A stretch of 64,000 bases of DNA from Bacteroidales bacterium (GTDB lineage: Bacteria > Bacteroidota > Bacteroidia > Bacteroidales > JAIOZK01). Where the stretch lies: positions 27,627-91,626 of the forward strand of contig JAIOZK010000008.1 of NCBI GenBank assembly GCA_021740625.1. The letters run 5' to 3'. The notes under the pieces are model-generated. The model was not told the origin of the DNA. It made no database searches and saw only the letters and a list, made by a program, of their open reading frames with translations. Positions 7,911 to 50,225 of this stretch are shown here, piece by piece. The position numbers and the translations under genes were made by a program. Each line of letters opens with the position of its first letter. Position 1 is the first letter of the stretch.

Positions 7911-8741
7911 TTGCGTTTCAAATTAATTTTTTCTGTCGACCGGGTAAAAAGCCCATTGCCCATATTACCGGTTCATTATCAGTACCCGGTTTCCTGCTGG
8001 ATTTATAAAACCATCCGTGAGGGCAATCCGGATTACAGGGGCTGGCTGAAAAAGAACGGATTTATTTCGAGCCGTCAGGTTTTTAAGATTTTTACCTTTT
8101 CAAATTTCCTCCTGAATGAAAACGAATATGAAATCCGCGGAGACCGGATCATGTTATTGAGTGATAGCATCGAAATGGTACTGAGCAGTCTTGTCAATAC
8201 TGATATTACTGAATATGTCAAAGCCCTTTTTACCGGACAGGAGCTTTCGCTGGGAGATAAGAAAAGCCGGGTGTTTTTTGAGCTCAGGGATGTAGTACCC
8301 CTGGATGAGCAATTGAATGAAAAGACCAGATTGAGGCTGATATCGCCGGTTGTGATCAGCCCGGATTTTGTAAAAGAAGAAAACAAAATTCCGGAAGCCT
8401 TCCTTAACCCGCAAGATGATGAATACAAATTCTACTTTTTTAAAAACCTGATCGAAAAAGAGCTGATCAAAAAGGGAAAGAACCCGGCCCAGGCCAAGAT
8501 GGACCTGGAAGATGCCGAAATGGAAATCCTCAGCAAACCCAAAAAAGTGGATACACCTATTAAATCAGGGAATAACGGAACCAAAAACATTCCGGCTTAT
8601 TCTTTCGAGTTTGAAATCAAGGCCCCCGAACATCTTATTAAAAACGGATTCTACGGAGGCTTCGGCACCCTGAACAGCAAGGGTTTCGGTTGTGCGGAGA
8701 TCGTGGAAGAGGAAGAAGAATATCCCTATTATGGCAGATAA
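7911..8741 (+). CDS. cas6: CRISPR-associated endoribonuclease Cas6-like (orphan)
   Basis: N-terminal LP.HYQY...WIY...FKIFTFS and C-terminal Gly-rich loop GFYGGFGTLNSKGFG; no other cas gene or array in window. Confidence 0.85.
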   Translation: MRFKLIFSVDRVKSPLPILPVHYQYPVSCWIYKTIREGNPDYRGWLKKNGFISSRQVFKIFTFSNFLLNENEYEIRGDRIMLLSDSIEMVLSSLVNTDITEYVKALFTGQELSLGDKKSRVFFELRDVVPLDEQLNEKTRLRLISPVVISPDFVKEENKIPEAFLNPQDDEYKFYFFKNLIEKELIKKGKNPAQAKMDLEDAEMEILSKPKKVDTPIKSGNNGTKNIPAYSFEFEIKAPEHLIKNGFYGGFGTLNSKGFGCAEIVEEEEEYPYYGR

Positions 8742-8765
8742 CAAAGCCGGTACATTGATCACAAT

Positions 8766-9422
8766 ATGCAGATGAAACGAATTTACCTCGGTTTTGAGTT
8801 TATCTTATTATTCTTTGCCATTCCCCTGTTCTTATATCTTTTCCCTGAAATCGTTTTCAGGCCCATTGCTTTCCTTCTGCCCTTAGTTCTCCTGATCTTT
8901 TTTTACTTATACAGAGCACCAGGTTTCAAATTCATGGAGCTTTTAAAGCTCAACATCGATCGAAAGATATGGTTTAAGAACCTGTTGACAATTGTCATTA
9001 CAGGAATCCTGATGCTGCTTTCGGTATGGTACTTCGATCCTGCCAATCTTTTCAATTTGCCCCGGATGAACCTCAGGCTCTGGTTCATGCTCTGCATTTT
9101 CTACCCCCTCTTTTCAGCTAGCATACAAGAGATCATTTTCAAGACTTTCTTTTTCAGGAGATACAGGGAGCTATTCAGGAGCAAAACAACCCTTATCATA
9201 GGCAGCGGCATCAGCTTCGGTTTTATGCATATCGTTTATTACAGTTGGATCTCCATGAGCTTGTCATTTTTCATGGGCATTTACCTGGCGATGGTTTATG
9301 AAAAAACAGGAAGTGTTTTATTTATAACAATCCTTCATGGTATTTTCGGAATCATGGCTTTTTCATTCGGACTGGGACAGTATTTCTGGCTGGATATGTT
9401 TGAGTATATCAATAAGTTTTGA
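8766..9422 (+). CDS. CPBP/Abi (CAAX protease-like) intramembrane metalloprotease
   Basis: QEIIFK (EExxFR-like), FGFMH and LHG motifs in a multi-TM protein. Confidence 0.75.
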   Translation: MQMKRIYLGFEFILLFFAIPLFLYLFPEIVFRPIAFLLPLVLLIFFYLYRAPGFKFMELLKLNIDRKIWFKNLLTIVITGILMLLSVWYFDPANLFNLPRMNLRLWFMLCIFYPLFSASIQEIIFKTFFFRRYRELFRSKTTLIIGSGISFGFMHIVYYSWISMSLSFFMGIYLAMVYEKTGSVLFITILHGIFGIMAFSFGLGQYFWLDMFEYINKF

Positions 9423-11232: not shown

Positions 11233-12021
11233 TTAGGAATAAACATGCACACTGTTTTGTGCCGATGGAAGATAATTGATGCCAAACCAGCAAATCAGCA
11301 AAACGACGAAAGCCAGGGACAATATCCAGAGAGAAGATTTCACGTATTTTCTTTTGTTTACCCTGAAATGGATGTACAGCAAATAGACCAGCCAGGTGAG
11401 AAAGGCCCATGTTTCTTTGGGATCCCAGGTCCAGTAATGACCCCAGGCTTCTTTTGCCCACAAGGCCCCGAAAAGCAAACCGAATGTTAAAAAAGCAAAT
11501 CCGATGTAAACAATGTTGTCTGCCAGTTTTATGGTTTTATCCGTGGATTTGTTCCTGTACATCAGGTAGAGTCCTTTCAGACCCATCAAGGATGAAACAG
11601 CCAGGAAGGCATATCCTATGATATAGACGATCACATGGGGGATGAACCAGGGGCTCCGGAGGGCGGGCATCAGGGTTTTATCGAAAGTATCGGGATTCAT
11701 ATAATTGATGAACAAGAACAATATGGCCATCAATAGGCTGTAGGCAAGCATCCAGAGGAGCTTCCAGCGATAATAAATAATGATACCTATTAGCGAGATG
11801 AATATCGCATACCAGAGCCTTGTTTCGGCCAGTGTTCGGAAAGGGGGCCTTTCCAGGTTCAACCACAAGCCAATGGTGAATATTACAATGGATACAACAC
11901 CTCCGAGCAGAAAAATATCAGGAATCACTTTTACTTTCCTTGGCAAAACGAGTATAATCAGGGCAAGTATCCAAAGCCCTGATGATAAGATCATATAAAT
12001 TGAATAATCAGTCCAGTTCAT
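11233..12021 (-). CDS. ccsA: Cytochrome c biogenesis protein CcsA (system II)
   Basis: WWD domain GALWAKEAWGHYWTWDPKETWA; conserved His in WFIPHV and VHVY. Confidence 0.95.
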   Translation of the reverse strand: MNWTDYSIYMILSSGLWILALIILVLPRKVKVIPDIFLLGGVVSIVIFTIGLWLNLERPPFRTLAETRLWYAIFISLIGIIIYYRWKLLWMLAYSLLMAILFLFINYMNPDTFDKTLMPALRSPWFIPHVIVYIIGYAFLAVSSLMGLKGLYLMYRNKSTDKTIKLADNIVYIGFAFLTFGLLFGALWAKEAWGHYWTWDPKETWAFLTWLVYLLYIHFRVNKRKYVKSSLWILSLAFVVLLICWFGINYLPSAQNSVHVYS

Positions 12022-13246
12022 TTTCAGTCTTTTTCGTTGTTCTTCCCATCCAGACCAGGTAGAGCGATCCCAGCAGCATCATAAAGATTCCCACATAAAC
12101 GACGGGCAGCCAGGGGTCTTTCACGATCTCAACAATACTCACCTGCGACCATTTGCCCATCCTTTCATCATATCCGGTCTGGTAAAGGGTCCATCCATTT
12201 ATTTTAGCGGGTTTGTTCACCTTGATGGTGATATCCTCATATTCTTTCATGGATGTAAAAAAGCGTATTTCGGAACTGTATTCCATGGGTGCGGGTACCC
12301 GCATAGCGATCGCCCAGCGGTCAGAGAGATGCATGAATTTGTTCGGCACAATAAAACTGCCGCTGGTCAGCCACCCCGCTTTAATTTCGTCCGTAATTGT
12401 GTTTCTAACCCTCATATGCACCACCGGGGGAGCCCCGACCCGCTCACTCTCGGTATATCCTGTACTGTCGGGGAATCCGGATTCGTAATATTCATCTATA
12501 TTTATTTCCCACTGGCCGAATTCGGTGTTGAGTCCTTTTTCAACTGCGATCAGTTGTCCCATTTCGTCAATGGCAAACTGACCGGTATTTTTATCGACCA
12601 GCCCGATGCTGGGAGGATATTCCTTGATATGAAAATCGAGTAATTTTATGGCAAAGGGAAGCTGGTATGCCCTGCCCTCACCATCATATGCTCTGAAAAC
12701 GGCCTGGTTCTCCTGCAATGTCATATTTAACCGTCTCAGATCGGATGAACCCAGGGAGGCAGCAACGATGACAATCCATAAACCGGCATGATTCAGGAAA
12801 AAAGCAAAATTTTTAAGGTTCAGGGGGAATGAACGGCGCACTGTGGTATAGCCCAGTATGATCAGCAAATAAAAGGATAACAAGATATAGGGCCAGCTCC
12901 TTGTTACATGTGTCAGACCCAGATCAACCAGCAGTGAACCTCCCGATTCATCTGTTTGCGGAATAAAACCGAGTAACAATACCAGGATGGTAAACAAAGA
13001 AATGGAGGATATAGCTGCAGGCACACTGGACAGCCATTTCATGAAGGGATGTTTCACCATCCTGTAGGAAATATATATATAGGCGATCAAAACGAGGATC
13101 AATATAAAATTGAAGGGCCACCTGGGCAAATAGATCGCATCAACTGGTGATACAAGCTCAATAAAAAAACCCAGAAACAATAATACAATCCCAATGGTAA
13201 AACTTTCCCTGTATCCCCAGGGGTACTCCCAGAACCTTCTTCTCAT
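12008..13246 (-). CDS. resB: Cytochrome c biogenesis protein ResB/CcsB (system II)
   Basis: TM N-terminus, FFLNHAGLW conserved His, periplasmic domain, C-terminal KDPWLPVVYVG helix; overlaps ccsA start. Confidence 0.85.
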   Translation of the reverse strand: MRRRFWEYPWGYRESFTIGIVLLFLGFFIELVSPVDAIYLPRWPFNFILILVLIAYIYISYRMVKHPFMKWLSSVPAAISSISLFTILVLLLGFIPQTDESGGSLLVDLGLTHVTRSWPYILLSFYLLIILGYTTVRRSFPLNLKNFAFFLNHAGLWIVIVAASLGSSDLRRLNMTLQENQAVFRAYDGEGRAYQLPFAIKLLDFHIKEYPPSIGLVDKNTGQFAIDEMGQLIAVEKGLNTEFGQWEINIDEYYESGFPDSTGYTESERVGAPPVVHMRVRNTITDEIKAGWLTSGSFIVPNKFMHLSDRWAIAMRVPAPMEYSSEIRFFTSMKEYEDITIKVNKPAKINGWTLYQTGYDERMGKWSQVSIVEIVKDPWLPVVYVGIFMMLLGSLYLVWMGRTTKKTENELD

Positions 13247-13277
13247 TTTCGATCTTCTCAGTATTGCAAAGTATAGA

Positions 13278-14777
13278 TTAGTATAAATCCCTGTGACATT
13301 CGGCGCAATATGTGGTTTTCCATTCTTCACCAATATCAACGGGGTGCCTGAATTCAAGCGATTCTTCAGCCATAGCATATTCCTTGTTTCCGGGTGTACC
13401 TTGCGCCTTGATCTCGTGGCAGAGATTACAATCTCTTGAAATCACCCTGTTTCCTTTTGAAATGTGTTTATCATTGTGACACCTAACACATCCTTCGGTA
13501 TTCAAATGGCCGATATGATCGGGATATACATCCCACTTCACCTTCATTTCAGGAAAAATATTTTTTTTAAACTCTTCCTGCAAAACAGCAATTGCATTTT
13601 CAATCACAGCCTTATTGGTATCATAGATATCAGGATATAAAAACTCATAATAAAATCTGATTTCTTGTTCAATGTACTCCATGGCACTGTCGGTGGTTGG
13701 GAAATCATTGTTCAAAATATCCATGGCTGCAACTTTAATATCGGGAAGATCTTTGGGTATTCTGCCTGCCGTAATGGCATTATCCACAAACTCCTGCGGA
13801 GGATGGTATTTGTGTGAAGGTCTGTTGTGGCAATCCATACAATCCATTACACGAATTTCGGACTGGTTTATTTTTGATATATCAATGCTGGTATCAGGAT
13901 CCTGGTAAACGACTGACTTGCCGGTTTTCAAATCCGTATACCTCACCCATGGGATGTTCTCCCTTTCCCGGTCGGTGGCATAATATTCAATTTTAACATC
14001 CGGATTGATGTGCCAGTGAATGCCTTCTTTAAATCCGAGGGCTTCATAATTGGAGCCAATCTTCATCTGCATGCTAATATCCCATTCGGTATTTTCGGTA
14101 TTGGCAATATAGTGCTTGCGGTATTGCAGCTTTCTCGAGTAAAACTGTTCCGGCCAGTGGCATTCTTCACATGTTTCCCTGGCAGGGCGCAGGTTCCTTA
14201 CCGGAGTAGGAATGGGTTTGGGATAATTCCCCGTTGTAACAGCATAAACCTGGTACAGGCCCGACATTTTGGATTTTACGTACCAGTCGGCACCAGGACC
14301 TACATGACAATCCACACAGGCTACTCTTGCATGGGGTGATTCCTGGTAAGCTACATACTCAGGTTTCATCACTTTGTGGCATACCTTACCACAAAACTCT
14401 ACCGACTCGGTATAATGATATGCTTCATAGCTTCCGATGGCCGAAAGCATCAAAAAAATAACGGTTCCAAAAGTGAAAATAAAAAAAGCATTTCTGTAAC
14501 GTTTATCATTCAGATCGATTTTGGGCCAGCCACTTTTATGCGCAGGCTCCTTTTTCTTCTCACGTTTCTTTTTAACAAAGGTCCCAATGGGAATCAGGAT
14601 GAGCCCGATCACCAGAAACGCTGGCAATATAATATAAATGAACAAACCGAGGTAAGAACTCCCCTGGTCGAAGATTACGGATACCAGAAAAAGAAATACA
14701 ATAATAAAAAGGCTGACGAGTGCAATGATTGCTCCCATCAGTGATGTCCAGTTGTTAAATGATCTTGGCAGTTTCAT
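13278..14777 (-). CDS. 7-heme NapC/NirT-domain inner-membrane cytochrome c (ImcH-like)
   Basis: Three N-terminal TM helices; CGKVCH plus CVDCH, CEECH, CMDCH, CVRCH, CNLCH, CAECH. Confidence 0.85.
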   Translation of the reverse strand: MKLPRSFNNWTSLMGAIIALVSLFIIVFLFLVSVIFDQGSSYLGLFIYIILPAFLVIGLILIPIGTFVKKKREKKKEPAHKSGWPKIDLNDKRYRNAFFIFTFGTVIFLMLSAIGSYEAYHYTESVEFCGKVCHKVMKPEYVAYQESPHARVACVDCHVGPGADWYVKSKMSGLYQVYAVTTGNYPKPIPTPVRNLRPARETCEECHWPEQFYSRKLQYRKHYIANTENTEWDISMQMKIGSNYEALGFKEGIHWHINPDVKIEYYATDRERENIPWVRYTDLKTGKSVVYQDPDTSIDISKINQSEIRVMDCMDCHNRPSHKYHPPQEFVDNAITAGRIPKDLPDIKVAAMDILNNDFPTTDSAMEYIEQEIRFYYEFLYPDIYDTNKAVIENAIAVLQEEFKKNIFPEMKVKWDVYPDHIGHLNTEGCVRCHNDKHISKGNRVISRDCNLCHEIKAQGTPGNKEYAMAEESLEFRHPVDIGEEWKTTYCAECHRDLY

Positions 14778-14883
14778 AAGTTCATGATTCTTGTTATTTA
14801 CAATGCCCTGCCCTTCTACCTTTGCGTTCAGCTATTTGATAATAAAAATATTTTCAATCATGCTGCTTTTGCAGCACATTCAA

Positions 14884-15504
14884 TCAATCGTGTGTTTTAT
14901 GCCAGCCGTTAAACATGGCCTTAAAGTGGCTCAGGGGTGTGGCCCCGATGGTGCTGAAGTAAATATGAACGATCAGGAAAACCGAAACAAAAAACCCGAT
15001 GATCAAATGCAGGAGGTCTGTCAGATGCAAACCACTGACACCAAATACGTCATGTATGGTGATCTCGGGAAAAAGCAACGCCCAACCCGTAATAATAAGC
15101 AGGGGTATAAATACGTACATAACCACTGCATAGGATATTTTCTGTAGAGGATTGAATTTCCTTTTTTCATTGATCGGGAAAGGCGGCTTTTCGCCCCTGA
15201 ACAATCCAAGCGTGTAATATTTGAACTGTTTCATCAATTCAGTGCTGATGGTACGCAGGTTCAGATGGTAATATCTACCATTACCGGTAATCATGTTCCC
15301 CACAAGAAAGATCAGATAGCTCGCAGTTAAGAGTATACCGGTAATGTTGTGGATGGAAACAGCCAGATCGAAACGCATGAAGGGGAAATCGGGATTCGAA
15401 TATTGCATGCTCAGTCCTGTCAGGATCAAAAGAATGCATAAAACAGCATTTAACCAATGCCAGAACCTCAACCACAGCGGATAGAAATAATATTTTACTG
15501 CCAT
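14884..15504 (-). CDS. Diheme cytochrome b (HydC/FdnI-like, Ni_hydr_CYTB family)
   Basis: RFWHWLNA, SIHNITG, KFNPLQK, LHL...VHIY; four TM helices with paired His. Confidence 0.9.
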   Translation of the reverse strand: MAVKYYFYPLWLRFWHWLNAVLCILLILTGLSMQYSNPDFPFMRFDLAVSIHNITGILLTASYLIFLVGNMITGNGRYYHLNLRTISTELMKQFKYYTLGLFRGEKPPFPINEKRKFNPLQKISYAVVMYVFIPLLIITGWALLFPEITIHDVFGVSGLHLTDLLHLIIGFFVSVFLIVHIYFSTIGATPLSHFKAMFNGWHKTHD

Positions 15505-15513
15505 CTCCTTTTC

Positions 15514-16476
15514 CTATTTATTAATGATACGCAACACTATATGAACACCAATACCCAGCACTACCAATCCAAACAACACAATACTGATGAGATTAAGATA
15601 ATAGTTCCGGTTGGCTCCCACCACATAATATTCACCCAGCAATGCAGAATTGAAGAATCCTGCCTTATTTCTTTCTTCTTTAGCCTGGTAGCGGTAAAGA
15701 GAAGCCATCAGCAATGAATTATCAGAATGACATTCGACACATTTTTTTACAGCCTTTTCTTTGGGTAGTATGTTATGGGCTACCAACAGGGTATCACTTT
15801 GCTCGGCATGGCATTCGATACAGCGCACACTTTTAAAATGCAATGCCTGGTTGGGAAGCCAGTCATGTGTTTCCAGCACATTCGGGTTTTCCCTTTCGGC
15901 TATGAACATGAATTCATCAATATCAGCATGACAATTCAGACAAATTGCATTGTCATAGGCAATTACTTCTTTGATATTTTCTTCAGTTCTTGCGCTGATC
16001 TTATACTCGTGCGGATTATGGCACATCCAGCAACTGAAGGTTTCATTGTGCTTTTGAGAGTGGATGCTTTTTTCGTATTCCGATTGAATTTCTTCGAAAT
16101 TAAATTTGGCCCATTCATCCCCGAATCCATGACAATCCATACAGGAATAGGAAGGTTCCATCCGCAGGTAACCTGGGTGCGGAAATTCTTCATATTCGTA
16201 TGAATGGCAATCAATGCATGTGAAAGTTTTATGGTTGGAATTGTAATATTCTGCAGAATCGATCACATAAAACGGATTCATCCTTTCTCTCACATCTCCT
16301 TCCACCCAATCGTTATAATAACTGTAGTATTTATTCCCATGGCATTTTAGGCATTTTTGGTTTTCCTTAACATTTTCAGGTATGCTGTCAGTTTGCTGAG
16401 CAAACAAACCTGCATTAGCAATCATGAAAAAGAACATCCAAATCAATGCCTGAATTCTCATCCCTTTTATCATCAT
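15514..16476 (-). CDS. 7-heme periplasmic cytochrome c with C-terminal membrane anchor
   Basis: Signal peptide; CLKCH, CIDCH, CMDCH, CWMCH, CLNCH, CIECH, CVECH; C-terminal hydrophobic helix. Confidence 0.9.
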   Translation of the reverse strand: MMIKGMRIQALIWMFFFMIANAGLFAQQTDSIPENVKENQKCLKCHGNKYYSYYNDWVEGDVRERMNPFYVIDSAEYYNSNHKTFTCIDCHSYEYEEFPHPGYLRMEPSYSCMDCHGFGDEWAKFNFEEIQSEYEKSIHSQKHNETFSCWMCHNPHEYKISARTEENIKEVIAYDNAICLNCHADIDEFMFIAERENPNVLETHDWLPNQALHFKSVRCIECHAEQSDTLLVAHNILPKEKAVKKCVECHSDNSLLMASLYRYQAKEERNKAGFFNSALLGEYYVVGANRNYYLNLISIVLFGLVVLGIGVHIVLRIINK

Positions 16477-16554
16477 CTGTTCAGTATGTTTAGGAAAAAA
16501 TGAATGAGGACATCCAGCCAACAATGCCGGACATCCCCATTGATCACAGGCAAA

Positions 16555-16962
16555 TTATTTTTTCAGTGACCTGATGTAGTTTACCACTGCCCAGCGATCT
16601 TCGTCATCAGGGATTTTGCTTTCAAAATTGGGCATTTCATCCCTGCCGATGATGGACATATAATAGATTTCACCATCGTTATATGCTGCCTGAAAATCCT
16701 CCGACGAAAGGTCAAACATAGGCACATCGATCTGTTTGGCCCTGGGTCCGTCGGCTTCACCCTTGTTTCCGTGACAGGACTTACAATTCTTTGCATAAAG
16801 CATTTTTCCGATCCTGTCGAGGCCTTTATCGCCTTTATAAGGATTTTCCATGTTTTTATACTCATCCGGAATTTCCCAGGGGGTTTTATCCCCTTCGGGA
16901 AGTCCGAACGACATCATCAGAAATGCAAAACCTGCAATGAGTGTAATACTTGACTTTTTCAT
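16555..16962 (-). CDS. Monoheme class I cytochrome c
   Basis: Signal peptide, CKSCH, distal Met in EMPNF. Confidence 0.9.
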   Translation of the reverse strand: MKKSSITLIAGFAFLMMSFGLPEGDKTPWEIPDEYKNMENPYKGDKGLDRIGKMLYAKNCKSCHGNKGEADGPRAKQIDVPMFDLSSEDFQAAYNDGEIYYMSIIGRDEMPNFESKIPDDEDRWAVVNYIRSLKK

Positions 16963-17159
16963 ATTTTATTCTCCTTTATTATAGATTATTTTGTGAATAT
17001 CTGCAATTAATTCTTATTCAACCCCAAGGCCGGACCCATTTTTCTGATGCCGGACATTGGGCAAACTTATCTGACGGCAATCATGTTAAATCATACCTCT
17101 CGTCCGCACCCTGCCACTGAAGCTTCAGCATAAGCGTTCGAAGCAAATGCGAATAAGGA

Positions 17160-18020
17160 TTAAAAACTCCACAATCTCGTAATATTAAACCCGAACATGA
17201 TGCCACCATCGAAAAAATCATTGGTATTGTGCATCATGTTATACTGTGGTACCAAGGCCCTTCCGCTGGATACGAACATCTGGAACACGTGGGTACTGGT
17301 AGAGATCTCCCAGCCGATCCCAATGTTGGCCTTGGGTTTTAAAGCCGGTTCATGATGTTCATAAATGCCTTCTATTTCAAGGGGTTGATTCCACTGCAAA
17401 GTTATGGAAGATTGCGGGCTTATCCTGGCCCTGCCGCTGAAAGCGATACCGATCTTGTCGTGCTCATATTCTTTCTGCACTTTATTGATGTGGGAGAAGG
17501 TTGGGGCCACCTGTACGGATATACCATAGCTTATTTTCCGGGAAATGATAAGCGCGGCATAGTAGCTAAAGCGGTTGCTAAACTTGTAATCTTTACCGAA
17601 AACATCTTTCTCCCTTCCATCGATGGCCATGTTTCCATAAAAGGCTACACCTACCGGAATGGTATTTTCACGTGTTTGCTCAAAAACAATATATTTCGCC
17701 CTGAAATCCTGAAGTTTTTGGTCTTTTGTTGTGCCGAGGCCGATCATAAGATTATCCAGCAAACTGTAGTTTAAAGCAAGTCGAATATTGGAGGCCGCAT
17801 AAATCCCCCACAGGTCTTTATGATCTTTTATTTCTCCAAATCTGTGTTCGATCACAAATTCAAGCGTTTTTTTCGTAGGTACAATGACGGTCTGGTTATC
17901 GATTAAAATCCCGCTTTCGAAAGGTGCCCTGACGGGTTTATCTTTTTTCTTCTCTTCCTGTGCAAGCAATGAACCCGCTCCTATGAGCAAAGCAAATAAT
18001 ATGATTGTAAATTTCTTCAT
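17160..18020 (-). CDS. DUF5777-like outer-membrane beta-barrel
   Basis: Signal peptide; HRFG, THVFQ motifs; C-terminal GFNITRLWSF with terminal aromatic residue; paralog at 47380-48288. Confidence 0.75.
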   Translation of the reverse strand: MKKFTIILFALLIGAGSLLAQEEKKKDKPVRAPFESGILIDNQTVIVPTKKTLEFVIEHRFGEIKDHKDLWGIYAASNIRLALNYSLLDNLMIGLGTTKDQKLQDFRAKYIVFEQTRENTIPVGVAFYGNMAIDGREKDVFGKDYKFSNRFSYYAALIISRKISYGISVQVAPTFSHINKVQKEYEHDKIGIAFSGRARISPQSSITLQWNQPLEIEGIYEHHEPALKPKANIGIGWEISTSTHVFQMFVSSGRALVPQYNMMHNTNDFFDGGIMFGFNITRLWSF

Positions 18021-18049
18021 TTTCCCTTTTTTTAAAATGAACAATAGGA

Positions 18050-18430
18050 TTAATTATTTTTGGCACCCTGTTGTATCCATATCAGTACTTTGGCGGCATT
18101 ATCCACACTATATTTATCATGCTGTTCCGCACTATTGGGATCGGGAACAACATACAGGGGGCTGCTTTGAGGATTGGCAGTATCAACAAGATTGTTATTC
18201 TGAATACTCTGGTAAGCCTGTGCTTCCTCGAGCGAAAATGCGATACCTGTAGTACTGTGGCAGGCAACACATCCATCATCCTGGAAGATCGGAACAATAT
18301 CCGATTTAAAGCTCAGGGGAACATCAGGATCTATATCTGGTTTTTTAAGTTCGATAAACTCGTATTCACAGGCACTCAGGAAAGCGATGACCGTGAAAAG
18401 CATGCATATTTGTATAATTTTTTTCATCAT
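18050..18430 (-). CDS. Monoheme cytochrome c lipoprotein
   Basis: Lipobox LSAC; SF..DI.PIF...CVACH...WIQQGAKNN module. Confidence 0.8.
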   Translation of the reverse strand: MMKKIIQICMLFTVIAFLSACEYEFIELKKPDIDPDVPLSFKSDIVPIFQDDGCVACHSTTGIAFSLEEAQAYQSIQNNNLVDTANPQSSPLYVVPDPNSAEQHDKYSVDNAAKVLIWIQQGAKNN

Positions 18431-18461
18431 ATCAGGTCTTTGAATATTATTACAAATTACG

Positions 18462-18495
18462 AAAAAGGCCTCATTGCGCAAACGAAGCCTTTTTT
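18462..18495 (-). terminator. Intrinsic terminator after the hexaheme lipoprotein gene
   Basis: Minus strand aaaaaggcttcgtt-tgcgc-aatgaggccttttt stem-loop with U tract. Confidence 0.7.
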
Positions 18496-18511
18496 CAATA
18501 TGCAATGAACT

Positions 18512-19543
18512 CTATTGCAATGATTCGATTGAGTTTGTCAGGAGGGCTTTGGCGTATTTCATATTGTGTGTTCCGCCGCTTCTGTCCTCAAGTACAAATT
18601 TATAATTGAAAACACCACCAACCTGATCCATTGAAAGGGTAATACCCTCATCTCCGACGGGTACATAACCTGTGCTGTCAAGTGCTCCCTGTGCAATCAG
18701 CAAGCCTTTTAAATCCTCGAGCAGATTATCTATTTCATTTTTGGATTCTTCGATCATGGTTTCAAGATCATCACCTTCGTGGCATTCAACACAGCCTGCT
18801 TCATTTACAACTGCATGACCATGGTAAATATAGCTCGTTCCCATGGTATGTCCTCCTGCCTGGGTTCCATAGGCTGTTGCCATGTGACAGGTAACACAAC
18901 CATCTTCTATCAGTTCGGTGTGTAAAGAATTGTTGTAGCCCATGCTACCGGCAACTTCATAACCGCCACTGCCTGCAAGCATATTTCCCTGGGGACCGTG
19001 ATGGGGACCATACCGCATATTGTCAACCAATACATCACCTCCTCCCGGAACCGGCATTGGATCGGGTACCCGTGACTGATGACAACTTGCACAAAGGTTT
19101 CCTTTGCCCATATCAGCCACTGCCCCATTGATCCAGAACTCAACCGGTTCGGATGTTGTAAATGCCCAGTCTTCTACTGTGTAAGTTTCGTGGATCTTGT
19201 GACATGCATAACAATTAACAGGTGCCGGATTGTTGATCGGCTCGGCTGTCTCCATAGCACCGGTTTCAATAACTTCAACAAATCCCTGACTGGTATGACA
19301 TGGTGCACAACTGGTTCCGTTCCTTTCAAAATTACCACCTGTAGCGTGGGTAGATGCTTCCCACTGAACAGAGGCAGCAAAGATCATCTGGGAATCATCA
19401 TGACATTTGACACATCCTGCTGTTCCGTCTTGCCCATCTTTTCCGTCGGCACCCGCTGGCCCTTCTTTCGTACATCCTGAAATGATCAATGCTGCTGCAA
19501 AGACCATCGCAGTGGATAGTGATAAGAGTTTAAAGTTTTTCAT
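18512..19543 (-). CDS. Hexaheme cytochrome c lipoprotein
   Basis: Lipobox ISGC; GPAGADGKDGQDG linker; CVKCH, CAPCH, CYACH, CASCH, CVTCH, CVECH. Confidence 0.9.
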   Translation of the reverse strand: MKNFKLLSLSTAMVFAAALIISGCTKEGPAGADGKDGQDGTAGCVKCHDDSQMIFAASVQWEASTHATGGNFERNGTSCAPCHTSQGFVEVIETGAMETAEPINNPAPVNCYACHKIHETYTVEDWAFTTSEPVEFWINGAVADMGKGNLCASCHQSRVPDPMPVPGGGDVLVDNMRYGPHHGPQGNMLAGSGGYEVAGSMGYNNSLHTELIEDGCVTCHMATAYGTQAGGHTMGTSYIYHGHAVVNEAGCVECHEGDDLETMIEESKNEIDNLLEDLKGLLIAQGALDSTGYVPVGDEGITLSMDQVGGVFNYKFVLEDRSGGTHNMKYAKALLTNSIESLQ

Positions 19544-19678: not shown

Positions 19679-19692
19679 TTGATAAAAATCAA
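19679..19692. promoter_or_regulatory. FNR/CRP-family box TTGAT-N4-ATCAA
   Basis: Exact ttgataaaaatcaa; near matches at 19635-19648 and 19700-19713; lies between the cytochrome operon and the Crp/Fnr gene. Confidence 0.75.
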
Positions 19693-19792: not shown

Positions 19793-20488
19793 ATGGTGGA
19801 AAGATTCAGGAATTTAATGTGTAAAGATTGTCTCTTCAAGCAACCCTTGTTCAACATTTTGAATCCAAATGAGCTTGAAACATTGAACCAAAATAGATAT
19901 GAAGTCAGGTATAAAAAGGGAGAAACGATATTCAAGCAGGGTTCTGCATTAACGCATATTGCATGTTTTACACACGGCATGGCCAAAATATATATTGAAG
20001 GACTGAACAACAGGAATTTGATCATCAAGATTGTTAAAAGAGGTGAAATGGTTGGCGGTCCGGGTATGCATACTGACTTCAAACATCATTTTACCGTAAC
20101 AACCCTGACGGATACACAGGTGTGTTTAATCGATGCCGAAACCTTTCAGGATGTTGTAAAATCAAACAACAAGTTTGCCCTTGCAATGATGAAAAAAATA
20201 AACACACAGGGCATTAAGAATTTTGAGAAATTTATCAACCTGACCCAGAAACAAATGCCGGGCAGGATCGCAGATGCCATCTTCTACCTTTCAGACTTTG
20301 TGCATGAAAGCGATCATTTCGATGTTGTGATTTCGAGGCAGGACCTGGCAGATATGACGGCCATGACAAAAGAAAGTGCTATCAGGATCCTAAAGGAATT
20401 CAAAGATGCAGGATTGATCAGTGTTGAGGGGAATCATTTTGAGATCCTGGACAAAGAAACGCTCAGAAAGATATGCCGCACCGGCTAA
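19793..20488 (+). CDS. Crp/Fnr family transcriptional regulator
   Basis: N-terminal CKDC, cNMP-binding barrel, C-terminal HTH 'SRQDLADMTAMTKESAIRILKEF'; start may be 19817. Confidence 0.92.
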   Translation: MVERFRNLMCKDCLFKQPLFNILNPNELETLNQNRYEVRYKKGETIFKQGSALTHIACFTHGMAKIYIEGLNNRNLIIKIVKRGEMVGGPGMHTDFKHHFTVTTLTDTQVCLIDAETFQDVVKSNNKFALAMMKKINTQGIKNFEKFINLTQKQMPGRIADAIFYLSDFVHESDHFDVVISRQDLADMTAMTKESAIRILKEFKDAGLISVEGNHFEILDKETLRKICRTG

Positions 20489-47379: not shown

Positions 47380-48288
47380 CTACCACTTCTCCCCTTCTCC
47401 TGGCTGTTTTGGCTTTTGAATCACAAAGGTCCGGTTGATGTTAAACCCGAAATGTATATCACCTTTGCCCCAACTGCCGGTGGTTTCGGCAATGAAATAT
47501 TCTTCGATCATCCCGGCCGAGTTGCTGAAGAAAAGCTGGAAAACATGTCCGCCGGTTTCAATATCCAAACTCAAGGACAATGAGTTTTTGTATTGATCGG
47601 CTGTTTCTCCTGGTAAGAGATAAAAGTATTCCGCATTGATCGACATGCGCTGGGTGATCTTGAAACGGCCACCCGCCCCAAGGGCAAATACATCATGCTG
47701 GTCTTCTTTTGCAGGCACCAGATTGCGATGGATATAGGTTGGTGTGAGCTGCAGCGACAGGCTGTTGCTGAATTTCCGGGCGATCAGCAACTGGTGGGCG
47801 TATTGCATGCGGGAGGAAAAGAAATTGTTGCGTTCGGGATCGGTCCACCTCAACCCGTTGATAATGGTATTGCCGAAATAAGAAAGGCTGAAAGGCATGT
47901 TGCGGGCACCGGAGCTCTGTCGCAGGATCTTGTATTTGACAAATCCGTCAACGGTTTTTTTGAGTGAGCTTCTGCCGATGCCCATGGTCAGTCGTTCGGT
48001 AATCCCATATTCCAGTCCAAGATGTATGGTCGCCTGGTCCAGGCCGAAAAACTCGTAAGAGCCTGAGTTCAGCCTGCCAAATTGGTGGCTCACAATGAAC
48101 AGGAGGTTTCCTTTTGCAGGATTCTCAACAGATTGACCTTTGATGATGCGGGTTGCTTTAAAAGTAGCATAGGTATATTCAATGGTCTCCTCATCGTCTT
48201 CAAGCAGGCCCATCAGGTCGTCCTGTGCATGAACAGGATATACCAAGAACATCAGCAGGATTACGATTATGTATTGATTCTTTTTCAT
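47380..48288 (-). CDS. DUF5777-like outer-membrane beta-barrel
   Basis: Signal peptide; TFKATRII..QSVE, SHQFG, ETGGHVFQLFFSN, FGFNINRTF. Confidence 0.85.
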   Translation of the reverse strand: MKKNQYIIVILLMFLVYPVHAQDDLMGLLEDDEETIEYTYATFKATRIIKGQSVENPAKGNLLFIVSHQFGRLNSGSYEFFGLDQATIHLGLEYGITERLTMGIGRSSLKKTVDGFVKYKILRQSSGARNMPFSLSYFGNTIINGLRWTDPERNNFFSSRMQYAHQLLIARKFSNSLSLQLTPTYIHRNLVPAKEDQHDVFALGAGGRFKITQRMSINAEYFYLLPGETADQYKNSLSLSLDIETGGHVFQLFFSNSAGMIEEYFIAETTGSWGKGDIHFGFNINRTFVIQKPKQPGEGEKW

Positions 48289-48313
48289 GTTAAATTATTT
48301 ATTTAATATGCAT

Positions 48314-48364
48314 CTTTGTGTGCTTTTTGCCACCAAGGCACCAAGGCACAAAGTACACACAAAG
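48314..48364. repeat. Inverted repeat with cacaaag/caccaagg tandem units
   Basis: ctttgtgtg / cacacaaag arms enclosing caccaagg-caccaagg-cacaaag. Confidence 0.65.
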
Positions 48365-48368
48365 TTTT

Positions 48369-48743
48369 TTAATTGTTTGGTTTTCCTTCTTCTATCCAGA
48401 TCTTTAATTTTTTGATTGTACAATCATCAAGTTTTTGACCCGGAGGCATGAGCTGGGGATCACCCACCGGTTTCGAGATCCTTTCATACATTTTTTCCGC
48501 AGCCGCACTGATCTGATCATAGGTTTCCAGGTTCAGGTTTCCAGAGGGCGTAGCTCCGCTGTGGCAGCTCTGGCAAAAATTATCCGCCATGCTCAGGATA
48601 TCCCCCGAAAAGGTAATCTCTGTTGTGTCGCATATCTGTCCTGTAGGATATAACTCTTCTTCATTGTCATAATAACAGGAGGTCATCATTCCTCCAACCA
48701 TCATCAGCAATAAAATCAATTGAAATAATTTCCTCATCCTCAA
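48369..48743 (-). CDS. Monoheme cytochrome c lipoprotein
   Basis: Lipobox MTSC; CDT...CQSCH...MPP...C...WIEEG.PNN. Confidence 0.85.
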   Translation of the reverse strand: MRMRKLFQLILLLMMVGGMMTSCYYDNEEELYPTGQICDTTEITFSGDILSMADNFCQSCHSGATPSGNLNLETYDQISAAAEKMYERISKPVGDPQLMPPGQKLDDCTIKKLKIWIEEGKPNN

Positions 48744-48768
48744 ATTATTATTTGTTAATTATTGTTTG

Positions 48769-50031
48769 TTAATTATTCGGCATTCCTTCTTCAATCCAAA
48801 TCTCAACAGCTCTCCGGTCGCACACGGACCACTGGTTTCCATTCCGGGGCATGTTGGCATAGCCGGCTTCCCAGTTCAAAGCACCCATTAACTGGCCTGT
48901 TTCTGCCACGGCCACCAGGTCGGCATGGTTTTCAAGCGGAATTCCTCCTGAAGGATTCCCTCCGCTGTGACAGCCGAAGCATGAGTTCTGGACCATGGGC
49001 CAGACGGTTCCGCCAAAAGTCACATTCACCGTATCGCAATCTTCATCACAATGTAAATCCTGGGCTCCCTGTGCGATCCATTTATACACCATATTGATCT
49101 GTTCCTGTGTTAATGGGTTGTTGGGTGGTGGGGGCATGCGTTTGTCGGGATCGGTTTCGATCAATACTTCATACAGGTCACTGCCTTCGGGATCAAAAGG
49201 ATCTACATCTGCGGTAGCCATGACTGAGGCATAATCTGTTAACTGTACACCATCTTCCTGAGTTATATCATCATGGCAATTGGCCAGGGCGCAACTGGAT
49301 TGCAGCACAGGTAAAAGATCTTTCTCGAAATAAATCGTATCCGGGTGACAGGGATCACCCCCGGGCGGATTGTTGAAGGACGTATCGTTTACCCATTTCT
49401 CGATCTGTGCAATGGAACAGCTATCGAGTTTGCTTCCGTTCTGTGGCATTGGAACGTAACCGGGTTCATGTTTGATCACCCCGAGCAGGGCGCCGTTCTG
49501 GGCCAGTGTTGCCACCTGGCTGTAATCACTCAGGTCTATTCCTGCTTCAGGATTCTGTCCGCTGTGACATTCAAAGCATTTGGCCTGCAATATGGGTTGT
49601 ACCGTACCCGGAAATGTAAGGTTGCTGGTATCGCATTCAATTTCTTCAAAGGTGGTATCATTGATCCAGATCTCGATGGTCCTGATCTCACAGACATTAA
49701 GTGGCTGCTGGTCTTTCGGCATGGGGTAATAGCCTTCAAGCCGTTTCAGTGCACCCAGCAAGGTGCCATTCTGTGCGATGGCGGCTACATCACTGTAATT
49801 GGTCAGGTCGATACCATAATCGGGATTGGGGCCGCTGTGGCACGACAGGCAATGATTTTCAAATATGGGATAAACAGAACCCTTATAGCTTACGTTGATG
49901 GTATCACATGTGCCAGGTTCGTTCCCATTATTATCATCCGGCATAAAATCCTGCGGTTCATGCTCACAGGCAATGAGAAACAGTATCCCTGCAGCGAGGT
50001 AAAAAAGTTTGCGATTCGATCGTGATTTCAT
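48769..50031 (-). CDS. Lipoprotein with four tandem monoheme cytochrome c modules
   Basis: Lipobox LIAC; CLSCH, CFECH, CALANCH, CFGCH, each followed by an MP motif. Confidence 0.88.
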   Translation of the reverse strand: MKSRSNRKLFYLAAGILFLIACEHEPQDFMPDDNNGNEPGTCDTINVSYKGSVYPIFENHCLSCHSGPNPDYGIDLTNYSDVAAIAQNGTLLGALKRLEGYYPMPKDQQPLNVCEIRTIEIWINDTTFEEIECDTSNLTFPGTVQPILQAKCFECHSGQNPEAGIDLSDYSQVATLAQNGALLGVIKHEPGYVPMPQNGSKLDSCSIAQIEKWVNDTSFNNPPGGDPCHPDTIYFEKDLLPVLQSSCALANCHDDITQEDGVQLTDYASVMATADVDPFDPEGSDLYEVLIETDPDKRMPPPPNNPLTQEQINMVYKWIAQGAQDLHCDEDCDTVNVTFGGTVWPMVQNSCFGCHSGGNPSGGIPLENHADLVAVAETGQLMGALNWEAGYANMPRNGNQWSVCDRRAVEIWIEEGMPNN

Positions 50032-50225
50032 ATGATTGATTCTTGATTTTTCCGACTTGCTCAGGATCACAAATCTAGATATTTAAATGTATTTAAGTGA
50101 CGGTTTTTCTTCTGAATAAGGATTTTTTCAAGATCAACCCGAAAAAATTCTGACAAAATTTATATAATAAATTTGGTTAGCTAACTAACGTTTGTTAGTT
50201 TTGCATCAAATTTTGAAATAAACAC

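Follow-up and report, generated by a model that had tools for sequence, protein, structure and literature searches.

A conserved nine-gene cytochrome operon of Bacteroidota, a candidate for low-oxygen electron transfer from menaquinol to the outer membrane

Overview of the operon and the proposed pathway

A 64,000-nucleotide (nt) stretch of a Bacteroidales genome (contig JAIOZK010000008.1 of assembly GCA_021740625.1, positions 27,627 to 91,626; "the window" below means this whole stretch) contains a nine-gene operon whose products form what is, on well-supported sequence grounds, a probable cytochrome chain from quinol to the outer membrane. The operon may well constitute an FNR-controlled respiratory branch for low-oxygen conditions, in which electrons are transferred outward to an external acceptor, a proposal to which we give about even weight. 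Outward transfer is the best reading because (i) the inner-membrane proteins have the features of ImcH and CbcBA, (ii) the six-heme lipoprotein is akin to OcwA, (iii) the outer-membrane unit replaces that of related clusters, and (iv) it is unexplained how Labilibaculum reduces Fe(III) and Mn(IV). Labilibaculum, a cultured genus of the Bacteroidetes, reduces both metals by a mechanism that is not known (PMC5760507). No paper that we found describes the operon or its outer-membrane unit; the inner-membrane modules are known, and the OcwA-related exit lipoprotein is newly recognized.

The operon runs on the minus strand from position 19543 to position 11233 as nine co-directional, head-to-tail open reading frames (ORFs). 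These hold 22 heme c sites, namely 21 CXXCH motifs and one CX3CH motif, and both this number and the gene order bear out what an earlier note on this DNA had claimed. Six sites lie in the six-heme lipoprotein, one each in the small lipoprotein and the periplasmic cytochrome c, seven in the anchored cytochrome, and six CXXCH plus one CX3CH (CGKVCH) in the NapC-type protein. Just 12 ORFs with at least two CXXCH motifs occur across the whole 4.0-Mb genome, four of them inside the window, and the clustering of heme sites in the window is far above chance. Pfam and NCBIfam matches likewise uphold the assignments of cytochrome b, NapC-type protein, resB, ccsA, and barrel made in that note. In the order of transcription, with lengths in amino acids (aa), the genes are:

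18512..19543, minus strand, six-heme lipoprotein (343 aa, lipobox ISGC, six CXXCH)
18050..18430, minus strand, one-heme lipoprotein (126 aa, lipobox LSAC, CVACH, C terminus WIQQGAKNN)
17160..18020, minus strand, DUF5777 outer-membrane beta-barrel (286 aa, signal peptide, no heme site, C-terminal Phe)
16555..16962, minus strand, periplasmic class I monoheme cytochrome c of the His/Met type (135 aa, signal peptide, one CXXCH)
15514..16476, minus strand, CbcA-like seven-heme cytochrome (320 aa, signal peptide, C-terminal membrane helix with a histidine)
14884..15504, minus strand, CbcB-like diheme cytochrome b (206 aa, four membrane helices, Ni_hydr_CYTB)
13278..14777, minus strand, ImcH-like seven-heme inner-membrane cytochrome, NapC/NrfH-related (499 aa, three N-terminal helices, CX3CH and six CXXCH)
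12008..13246, minus strand, ResB/CcsB-type cytochrome c maturation protein of System II (412 aa, Pfam ResB)
11233..12021, minus strand, CcsA-type heme lyase of System II (262 aa, Pfam Cytochrom_C_asm, E value 1.6e-34)

In the proposed pathway, two modules working in parallel would oxidize menaquinol at the inner membrane, a CbcBA-like complex and, in this genome, an ImcH-like protein. The soluble His/Met monoheme cytochrome c would ferry electrons across the periplasm, and the one-heme lipoprotein, bound to the 12-strand DUF5777 barrel, would hand them on at the outer membrane. The end point would be the lipid-anchored, OcwA-related six-heme cytochrome on its collagen-like stalk, acting as a terminal reductase at or beyond the outer membrane; candidate acceptors are Fe(III) or Mn(IV) minerals, humic quinones, a partner cell, or an electrode. 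A dedicated ResB/CcsA pair would mature the cytochromes of the operon. The analysis itself shows which genes are present and in what order, their family features and homologies, how far the array is conserved, and the regulator with its box; how electrons pass from one protein to the next, which way the lipoproteins face, that flow is outward, and what accepts the electrons are inferred from these.

Inner-membrane quinol-oxidase modules

The 499-aa protein carries every published hallmark of ImcH and is assigned by these defining features, not by measured identity to Geobacter ImcH. Homologs of ImcH are defined by three N-terminal membrane motifs, an adjoining atypical CX3CH, six CX2CH, and, in the Geobacter group, a length of 495-519 residues (Zhong and Shi, PMC6295460). 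In the operon protein, hydropathy peaks at residues 17-35, 44-62, and 97-115 mark three N-terminal helices, and the CGKVCH motif (residues 129-134) lies 14 residues past helix 3. Its CX3CH and six CXXCH are invariant in 30/30 homologs. Besides this arrangement and a length of about 500 aa, it shares with Geobacter ImcH the homology to NapC/NrfH, as seen in matches to Pfam Cytochrom_NNT (E value 1.4e-12), TIGR03153 NrfH (7.6e-15), and the PDB entry for NrfH, 2j7a_C (1.4e-4). No ImcH-specific NCBIfam model matched the protein, and NrfH, matching the ImcH-like N terminus, was the only relative in PDB of the inner-membrane proteins, none being found for the cytochrome b.

CbcBA is composed of a four-helix diheme cytochrome b, commonly annotated as "thiosulfate reductase"-like, and a seven-heme cytochrome, CbcA, which is anchored by a C-terminal helix that apparently gives a histidine to a b heme (Joshi, Chan and Bond, bioRxiv 10.1101/2021.04.15.440034). 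The adjacent pair in the operon matches this description, again as judged by features and not by measured identity to the Geobacter sequences. Its cytochrome b matches Pfam Ni_hydr_CYTB (E value 2e-27) and, as its best NCBIfam model, the PhsC type (169.5 bits, under the curated cut-off of 204), and has four helices in which His16, His52, His166, and His180 are invariant in 73/73 orthologs; His202 is invariant too. The partner has seven CXXCH, seven invariant distal histidines, and a C-terminal helix at residues 296-314, whose His312 is invariant in 73/73. Because of the four-helix cytochrome b, the seven hemes, and the C-terminal-helix histidine, the identity of the pair as a split CbcL was dropped in favor of CbcBA. 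The expectation in the earlier note that quinol-oxidase modules known from extracellular respiration are present thus holds for both the ImcH-like protein and the CbcBA-like pair.

Several features set these modules apart from those of Geobacter. The genes for the ImcH-like and CbcBA-like proteins are neighbors within a single operon, and the ImcH-like gene is accessory. Among 83 loci related to the operon (80 from a barrel profile search of named assemblies and three further loci), it occurs in 29, and all 29 homologs share the four defining features of ImcH, each having six CXXCH and one CX3CH. Neither sigma-54 dependence nor a BccR-like response regulator, both traits of the CbcBA operon, was found here; the neighboring regulator instead belongs to the Crp/FNR family and is accompanied by an FNR-type box. 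The authors of the CbcBA study noted cbcBA homologs in Prolixibacter, Marinilabiliales, and Labilibaculum (bioRxiv 10.1101/2021.04.15.440034), the only such remark that we found in the literature on these groups.

Elsewhere in the same genome, an octaheme cytochrome (547 aa, with a C-terminal helix) precedes another cytochrome b, which shares 31% identity with that of the operon (C25:12057-14287). The genome also encodes an NrfH-NrfA pair (C1:30507-32682) and an ActA-like cytochrome of Alternative Complex III (C24:33075-34337).

Comparison with porin-cytochrome clusters

The strongest argument that the DUF5777 unit would serve the outer-membrane step comes from gene context, and from homologs of the six-heme lipoprotein in particular. 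Such homologs (E <= 1e-15) were present in 58 of 401 sampled Bacteroidota genomes, and the best of them lie in genomes without any DUF5777. One direct pair of homologs is 37% identical over residues 44-343 (E value 2e-59). Their source names are mostly Ignavibacteriaceae, Ignavibacteriales, or unclassified Bacteroidota, and OmbB-like porin-cytochrome clusters have been reported in Ignavibacteria (PMC4245776, PMC7399161).

All eight of the homolog loci that we examined (L090-L097) share one porin-cytochrome-like array. Its order is ImcH, a bc-type cytochrome b with an 11-heme cytochrome, a small cytochrome, a porin-like protein, a 12-14-heme cytochrome, a heme lipoprotein, and, last, the six-heme homolog. 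An ImcH homolog is found in six of the eight, three of these being cut by the end of the retrieved sequence, and the bc-type cytochrome b with its 11-heme partner in five. The small cytochrome has three or four hemes, with a c554-like Pfam match in L090. The porin-like proteins, heme-free and about 430 aa long, form one family with a signal peptide, a C-terminal Phe or Leu, 12-18% aromatic residues, and barrel-like period-2 amphipathicity. The heme lipoprotein has 6+1 hemes (8+1 in L091) and, in L090, a Geobacter CX4CH/CXXCH domain; the terminal six-heme homologs retain the lipobox and the G-X-Y triplets. A 666-aa cytochrome with 19 heme sites lies beside one of the arrays (L096:365-2365).

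Between the same ImcH entry and the same exit lipoprotein there would therefore seem to be two alternative outer-membrane units: (i) a large porin with its 12-14-heme partner, or (ii), in the operon, a DUF5777 barrel with a one-heme lipoprotein and a one-heme soluble cytochrome. It is because the DUF5777 unit replaces the large porin and its many-heme partner between the same entry and exit proteins that we would assign it the outer-membrane step. With OmaB-OmbB-OmcB, ExtABCD, MtrCAB, and the OmbB-like clusters of Ignavibacteria, the operon shares the logic of quinol oxidase, periplasmic carrier, barrel, and lipoprotein cytochromes. The multiheme outer-membrane exit may have its counterpart in the six-heme lipoprotein, homologous to the last lipoprotein of the porin-cytochrome-like clusters and bearing a partial export signal; the Pcc and Ext lipoproteins of Geobacter face outward. 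In contrast to these conduits, the operon encodes no large porin enclosing a periplasmic multiheme cytochrome. MtrB has 26 strands, whereas the operon barrel has 12 in 286 aa, its lipoprotein partner has one heme, and so has the sole non-anchored periplasmic cytochrome. The claim of the earlier note that the barrel is unrelated to MtrB and OmbB is consistent with this strand number and with its membership of DUF5777.

The six-heme lipoprotein and its kinship to OcwA

The six-heme lipoprotein is a candidate terminal reductase. From the N terminus, it comprises the lipobox ISGC, the segment C-T-K-E-G-P, and five collagen-like G-X-Y triplets; the six CXXCH come next, and a helical bundle forms the C-terminal part. 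A search for its family gave 1591 proteins, and wherever a source names one of them the name is "hypothetical", except that one is called a "collagen-like protein" and another carries a generic cytochrome label. Every type-1 member has C-[TV]-K-E-G-P or the shorter C-E-G-P at the lipidated Cys, followed by 5-11 G-X-Y triplets. Because of these triplets, the collagen-like stalk is probably trimeric and suggests a trimer held some nanometers off the membrane. We found no literature combining collagen-like, multiheme cytochrome, and lipoprotein.

The AlphaFold2 model of the protein has a mean predicted local distance difference test (pLDDT) score of 79.8. When PDB was searched with this model by Foldseek, OcwA of Thermincola potens ranked first (6i5b; E value 5.6e-6, 301 columns, template modeling [TM] score 0.49 normalized to the query), ahead of octaheme and pentaheme nitrite reductases. 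When the family profile was compared with PDB, OcwA was matched with an E value of 8.4e-13 across the last two hemes and the three-helix bundle, and NrfA with about 2e-4. The lipoprotein belongs to the NrfA/OcwA superfamily, in which the nine-heme OcwA is grouped with NrfA, MccA, and c554, and its nearest solved relative is OcwA. The two proteins share the homology of the C-terminal heme pair and helical bundle as well as the overall predicted fold; unlike OcwA with its nine hemes, the operon protein has six, is anchored by a lipid at its N terminus, carries a collagen-like stalk, and resides in a Gram-negative envelope. OcwA reduces iron oxides; it has been proposed to act as terminal reductase at the surface of Thermincola cells and reduces nitrite and hydroxylamine too (PMC6703420).

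Six non-motif histidines (His66, His118, His181, His208, His232, and His326) are 100% conserved, and CXXCK is absent. Six distal histidines for six hemes argue for bis-histidine (bis-His) ligation throughout, and for an electron-transfer protein rather than an enzyme, although counting histidines can mislead, as OcwA illustrates: its hemes 2 and 5 are five-coordinate although it has histidines enough (PMC6703420). The statement in the earlier note that no NrfA-type catalytic subunit is encoded here calls for a qualification, since the six-heme protein, although it lacks CXXCK, is itself a member of the NrfA/OcwA superfamily.

In Bacteroidota, the optimum lipoprotein export signal after the lipidated Cys is C-X-K-(D/E)2-X (PMC5080379). 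The C-T-K-E-G-P of the six-heme lipoprotein contains a single acidic residue; the Lys is present in 65 and the Glu in 63 of 77 orthologs. At the same place, the small lipoprotein reads C-E-Y-[DE]-aromatic-[IV]. Of the quinol-to-surface wire that had been claimed, the part from quinol to the outer membrane is well supported, and for the surface part the evidence consists of this partial match.

Heme motifs vary within the family. In 22 of the 74 six-heme orthologs inspected, CX4CH replaces one of the six CXXCH (for example, L014, L018-L020, L027, L028, L035, and L041), and in all eight porin-cytochrome-type homologs (L090-L097) the last site is CX4CH, C..[ST]GCH or C..TDCH.

The DUF5777 barrel, its one-heme lipoprotein, and a paralogous module

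The barrel matches Pfam PF19089 (DUF5777) over model positions 1-247 (E value 2e-73, 247.1 bits), a family of which we found no mention in the literature. Its AlphaFold2 model has 12 strands and a mean pLDDT of 91.2, and its Foldseek neighbors are generic 12-14-strand barrels only (FapF, the COG4313 channel, OmpG, and NanC, with TM scores of about 0.5). Three histidines, His59, His177, and His244, are invariant in both barrel paralogs of the window; by strand parity, judged without model coordinates, they may lie on the lipid face near strand ends.

The small lipoprotein gene adjoins the barrel gene in 82/83 loci, and its product would be an obligate barrel partner. The protein has a conserved start, C-E-Y-[DE]-aromatic-[IV]-x-P, and no significant Pfam family, with weak matches to class I cytochrome c and PSCyt1; FoxE was considered as a relative and rejected (E value 0.12, not significant). 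Two co-varying forms occur among L003-L085, one with CXXCH and a conserved His ("..S.TH..WKKY"), the other with CX4CH (CN..GCH) and a conserved Met ("GS-MK.Y"). These imply bis-His and His/Met ligation, respectively, and therefore very different potentials depending on lineage. The lipoprotein in the window is of the His type (bis-His subfamily).

A second module of this kind lies in the same window:

47380..50070, minus strand, paralogous barrel-cytochrome module (433-aa lipoprotein, 124-aa one-heme lipoprotein, second DUF5777 barrel)

Its barrel (47380-48288, 302 aa) is 29% identical to that of the operon and scores 332.9 bits against the DUF5777 model, and its 433-aa lipoprotein consists of four tandem one-heme modules, one of them with CX4CH (CALANCH). 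The module has no inner-membrane partners and a TetR-like gene upstream, and it resembles the "type 2" modules of other Bacteroidota (L086-L089). Because of this paralog and the type 2 modules, the DUF5777-lipoprotein unit is general, with the operon using a specialized copy. In one type 2 locus with a one-heme lipoprotein and two unassigned proteins (181 and 198 aa), a 606-aa frame is made up of two tandem DUF5777 barrels (L087:3873-5693).

The combination of one heme c domain and a small outer-membrane barrel is shared with Cyc2, the iron oxidase in which a monoheme cytochrome and a porin are fused. In contrast to Cyc2, the cytochrome, a lipoprotein, and the 12-strand barrel are here encoded by separate genes within a quinol-oxidase operon; no sequence relationship is detectable. 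None of the four unusually long DUF5777 frames inspected was a fusion of heme lipoprotein and barrel, these frames having N-terminal extensions or a tandem double barrel.

Periplasmic carrier and cytochrome c maturation

The monoheme cytochrome c matches Pfam Cytochrome_CBB3 and Cytochrom_C, and its CKSCH and Met110 are invariant across 84 homologs. Of the two maturation proteins, ResB gave six hydrophobic segments in a simple threshold-based scan, and CcsA matches TIGR03144 with 151.6 bits, under the curated cut-off of 187.6. A second, distant ccsA is found elsewhere in the genome, on contig C24. On inspection of the loci, no consistent co-occurrence was seen between the operon ResB/CcsA and unusual CX3CH or CX4CH sites. 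The maturation genes are split here, while in several related loci (L035, L057, L074, L077-L080, and L082) the array has beside it a single frame of about 1020-1075 aa that matches CcsA.

Oxygen-linked regulation

Upstream of the operon, two features point to control by oxygen:

19793..20488, plus strand (divergent), Crp/FNR-family regulator (231 aa, Pfam cNMP_binding and HTH_Crp_2)
19679..19692, no strand, FNR-type box TTGAT-N4-ATCAA (perfect; 149 nt upstream of the first gene)

In the regulator, Cys10, Cys13, and Cys111, which are spaced much like three of the four iron-sulfur cluster ligands of Escherichia coli FNR, are invariant in 65/65 orthologs, and Cys58 is present in 51/65. A homolog of the regulator lies within 63 of the 83 related loci. 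An FNR-type box with at most one mismatch was found in 60/78 orthologous upstream regions, against 64/2000 (3.2%) of random 263-nt windows from the same loci. Because of the FNR-like regulator and the conserved box, the operon is very probably switched on at low oxygen.

Conservation across related loci

The array recurs in the 83 related loci, all from other genomes. Named carriers include the cultured Carboxylicivirga mesophila, C. taeanensis, Carboxylicivirga sp. A043, Ancylomarina sp. DW003, and "Bacteroidales bacterium 6E", in addition to many metagenome-assembled genomes of Lentimicrobium, Prolixibacteraceae, Mariniphaga, and Saccharicrinis. The genes are distributed as follows, contig ends accounting for several of the absences:

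Barrel, 83/83 loci
Small lipoprotein, 82/83 loci
CbcA-like cytochrome, 77/83 loci
Six-heme lipoprotein, 76/83 loci
CbcB-like cytochrome b, 73/83 loci
Monoheme cytochrome c, 71/83 loci
Regulator, 63/83 loci
ImcH-like cytochrome, 29/83 loci
CcsA, 17/83 loci
ResB, 11/83 loci

No conserved reductase for a soluble substrate and no conserved transporter were found in the array across the 83 loci. An extra cytochrome of about 930 aa with 19 hemes adjoins the array in L027, L045, and L067.

Weighing the outward reading against its alternatives

Several points weigh against outward transfer through this unit. With its 12 modeled strands, the barrel is too small to enclose a cytochrome, and a single heme cannot span the membrane; because of this, electron crossing at the barrel has so far neither a known precedent nor a mechanism. 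The earlier description of the cluster as a complete, envelope-spanning one is not borne out as it stands, no route being evident across a 12-strand barrel with one-heme partners. The DUF5777 unit is also not specific to extracellular respiration, since it is common (167 of the 401 sampled Bacteroidota genomes, with a heme lipoprotein) and mostly found without quinol oxidases. His/Met class I cytochromes usually have high potentials, and a carrier of this kind sits oddly amid low-potential bis-His chains. The export signal of the six-heme protein is matched in part only (C-T-K-E-G against C-X-K-(D/E)2-X), and a soluble substrate is possible for this protein because OcwA reduces nitrite and hydroxylamine. 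We advance only as a doubtful possibility the more specific proposal that the DUF5777 barrel and one-heme lipoprotein are a new minimal outer-membrane electron-transfer unit, widespread in Bacteroidota, which does the job of the large porin and the 12-14-heme cytochrome by an unprecedented crossing and works with a stalked six-heme reductase. Candidates for the crossing are (i) a cofactor on the invariant barrel histidines or (ii) an aromatic-rich N-terminal segment of the lipoprotein inside the barrel.

The same observations could be accommodated within the periplasm, if both lipoproteins sat on the inner leaflet of the outer membrane and the six-heme protein reduced a small soluble substrate admitted through the DUF5777 barrel or at its mouth; this substrate might be Fe(III) in chelated form, an oxyanion of nitrogen or sulfur, or a shuttle resembling a quinone. 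Membership in a superfamily whose member OcwA reduces nitrite and hydroxylamine, the resemblance of the barrel to small substrate or polypeptide channels (FapF, the COG4313 channel, NanC, and Tsx), a barrel too small for a heme wire, and the partial export signal are all in keeping with such an arrangement. We nevertheless regard it as unlikely: neither CXXCK nor any other catalytic-heme signature accompanies the six conserved distal histidines of the six hemes, the array lacks a conserved soluble-substrate reductase or transporter, and small solutes would need no dedicated barrel paired with a heme lipoprotein, as is found in 82/83 loci. Moreover, the homolog of the lipoprotein ends porin-cytochrome-like clusters, whose Geobacter lipoproteins face outward.

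Electrons could also flow inward. The barrel and one-heme lipoprotein would then, like Cyc2, accept them from a donor outside the cell, for example a reduced shuttle or Fe(II), and the cytochrome c would pass them to a terminal oxidase under micro-oxic conditions or to the quinone pool. The layout, a one-heme cytochrome and small barrel followed by a class I His/Met cytochrome c, is indeed Cyc2-like; micro-oxic conditions would suit FNR control; many orthologs of the small lipoprotein are His/Met-ligated, which implies a high potential; and paralogs of the periplasmic cytochrome occur elsewhere, including a weak, 29%-identity match on C24, the contig that carries the ActA-like cytochrome. Inward flow is distinctly unlikely, however, given that CbcBA is a quinol oxidase and that all ImcH homologs reported to date come from Fe(III) reducers (PMC6295460). 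The small lipoprotein of the window is itself of the bis-His type, and barrel and cytochrome are separate genes with no fusion in the long frames inspected. The Cyc2 barrel is predicted to have 16 strands, as against 12 here. Finally, the DUF5777 barrel could be a non-redox translocon or anchor, like Slam or FapF, that brings the neighboring lipoprotein cytochromes to the surface, the electrons arriving by other means. FapF, its best Foldseek match, is a 12-strand polypeptide exporter, the barrel gene lies beside its lipoprotein gene as Slam genes do, and the conserved segment after the lipidated Cys of the small lipoprotein could be recognized or threaded. A TM score of about 0.5, however, denotes generic barrel resemblance only, and the three histidines invariant in both paralogs point away from a plain pore and toward a specific interface or a bound cofactor. 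A translocon would also leave the outer-membrane crossing unexplained, though the large porin and 12-14-heme partner of the related clusters are absent here. We consider this role very unlikely.

Significance

Anoxic sediments, digesters, and anode biofilms harbor abundant fermentative Bacteroidota, of which Labilibaculum is an example, and some of these bacteria reduce Fe(III) and Mn(IV). The operon provides a concrete and widely conserved candidate for this activity, and it is present in the cultured Carboxylicivirga and Ancylomarina. If outward transfer is correct, the operon could account for the reduction of iron and manganese minerals by such fermenters, the outer membrane could be crossed with far fewer hemes than current models demand, and metagenomic surveys keyed to large porins and many-heme cytochromes would miss a phylum-level route. 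If it is not, the cluster still defines an uncharacterized anaerobic branch of the Bacteroidota respiratory chain.

Gene models, transcription signals, and neighboring genes

Gene starts were revised from orthologs and from hairpins between genes. The small lipoprotein now starts at 18430, giving 126 aa instead of 151 aa, and the starts of the barrel (18020, 286 aa), the anchored seven-heme protein (16476, 320 aa), and ResB (13246, 412 aa) were likewise changed. One of the hairpins, found in a consensus scan, resembles a terminator:

18462..18494, minus strand, terminator-like hairpin (14 pairs, T-rich tail, directly 3' of the six-heme gene)

A further long minus-strand hairpin with a T-rich tail follows the monoheme cytochrome c gene (16503-16541). 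Such hairpins may cause partial termination or set unequal expression levels inside the operon. In the consensus scan, the number of terminator-like sites in the region was not above the shuffled expectation, nor was the number of matches in a sigma-70 promoter scan; Bacteroidota promoters have a consensus other than the sigma-70 type. Elsewhere in the window (7911-9422), a gene for a CPBP/Rce1-like protease comes after one of the Cas6 family (Pfam Cas_Cas6_C and Cas6_I-A).

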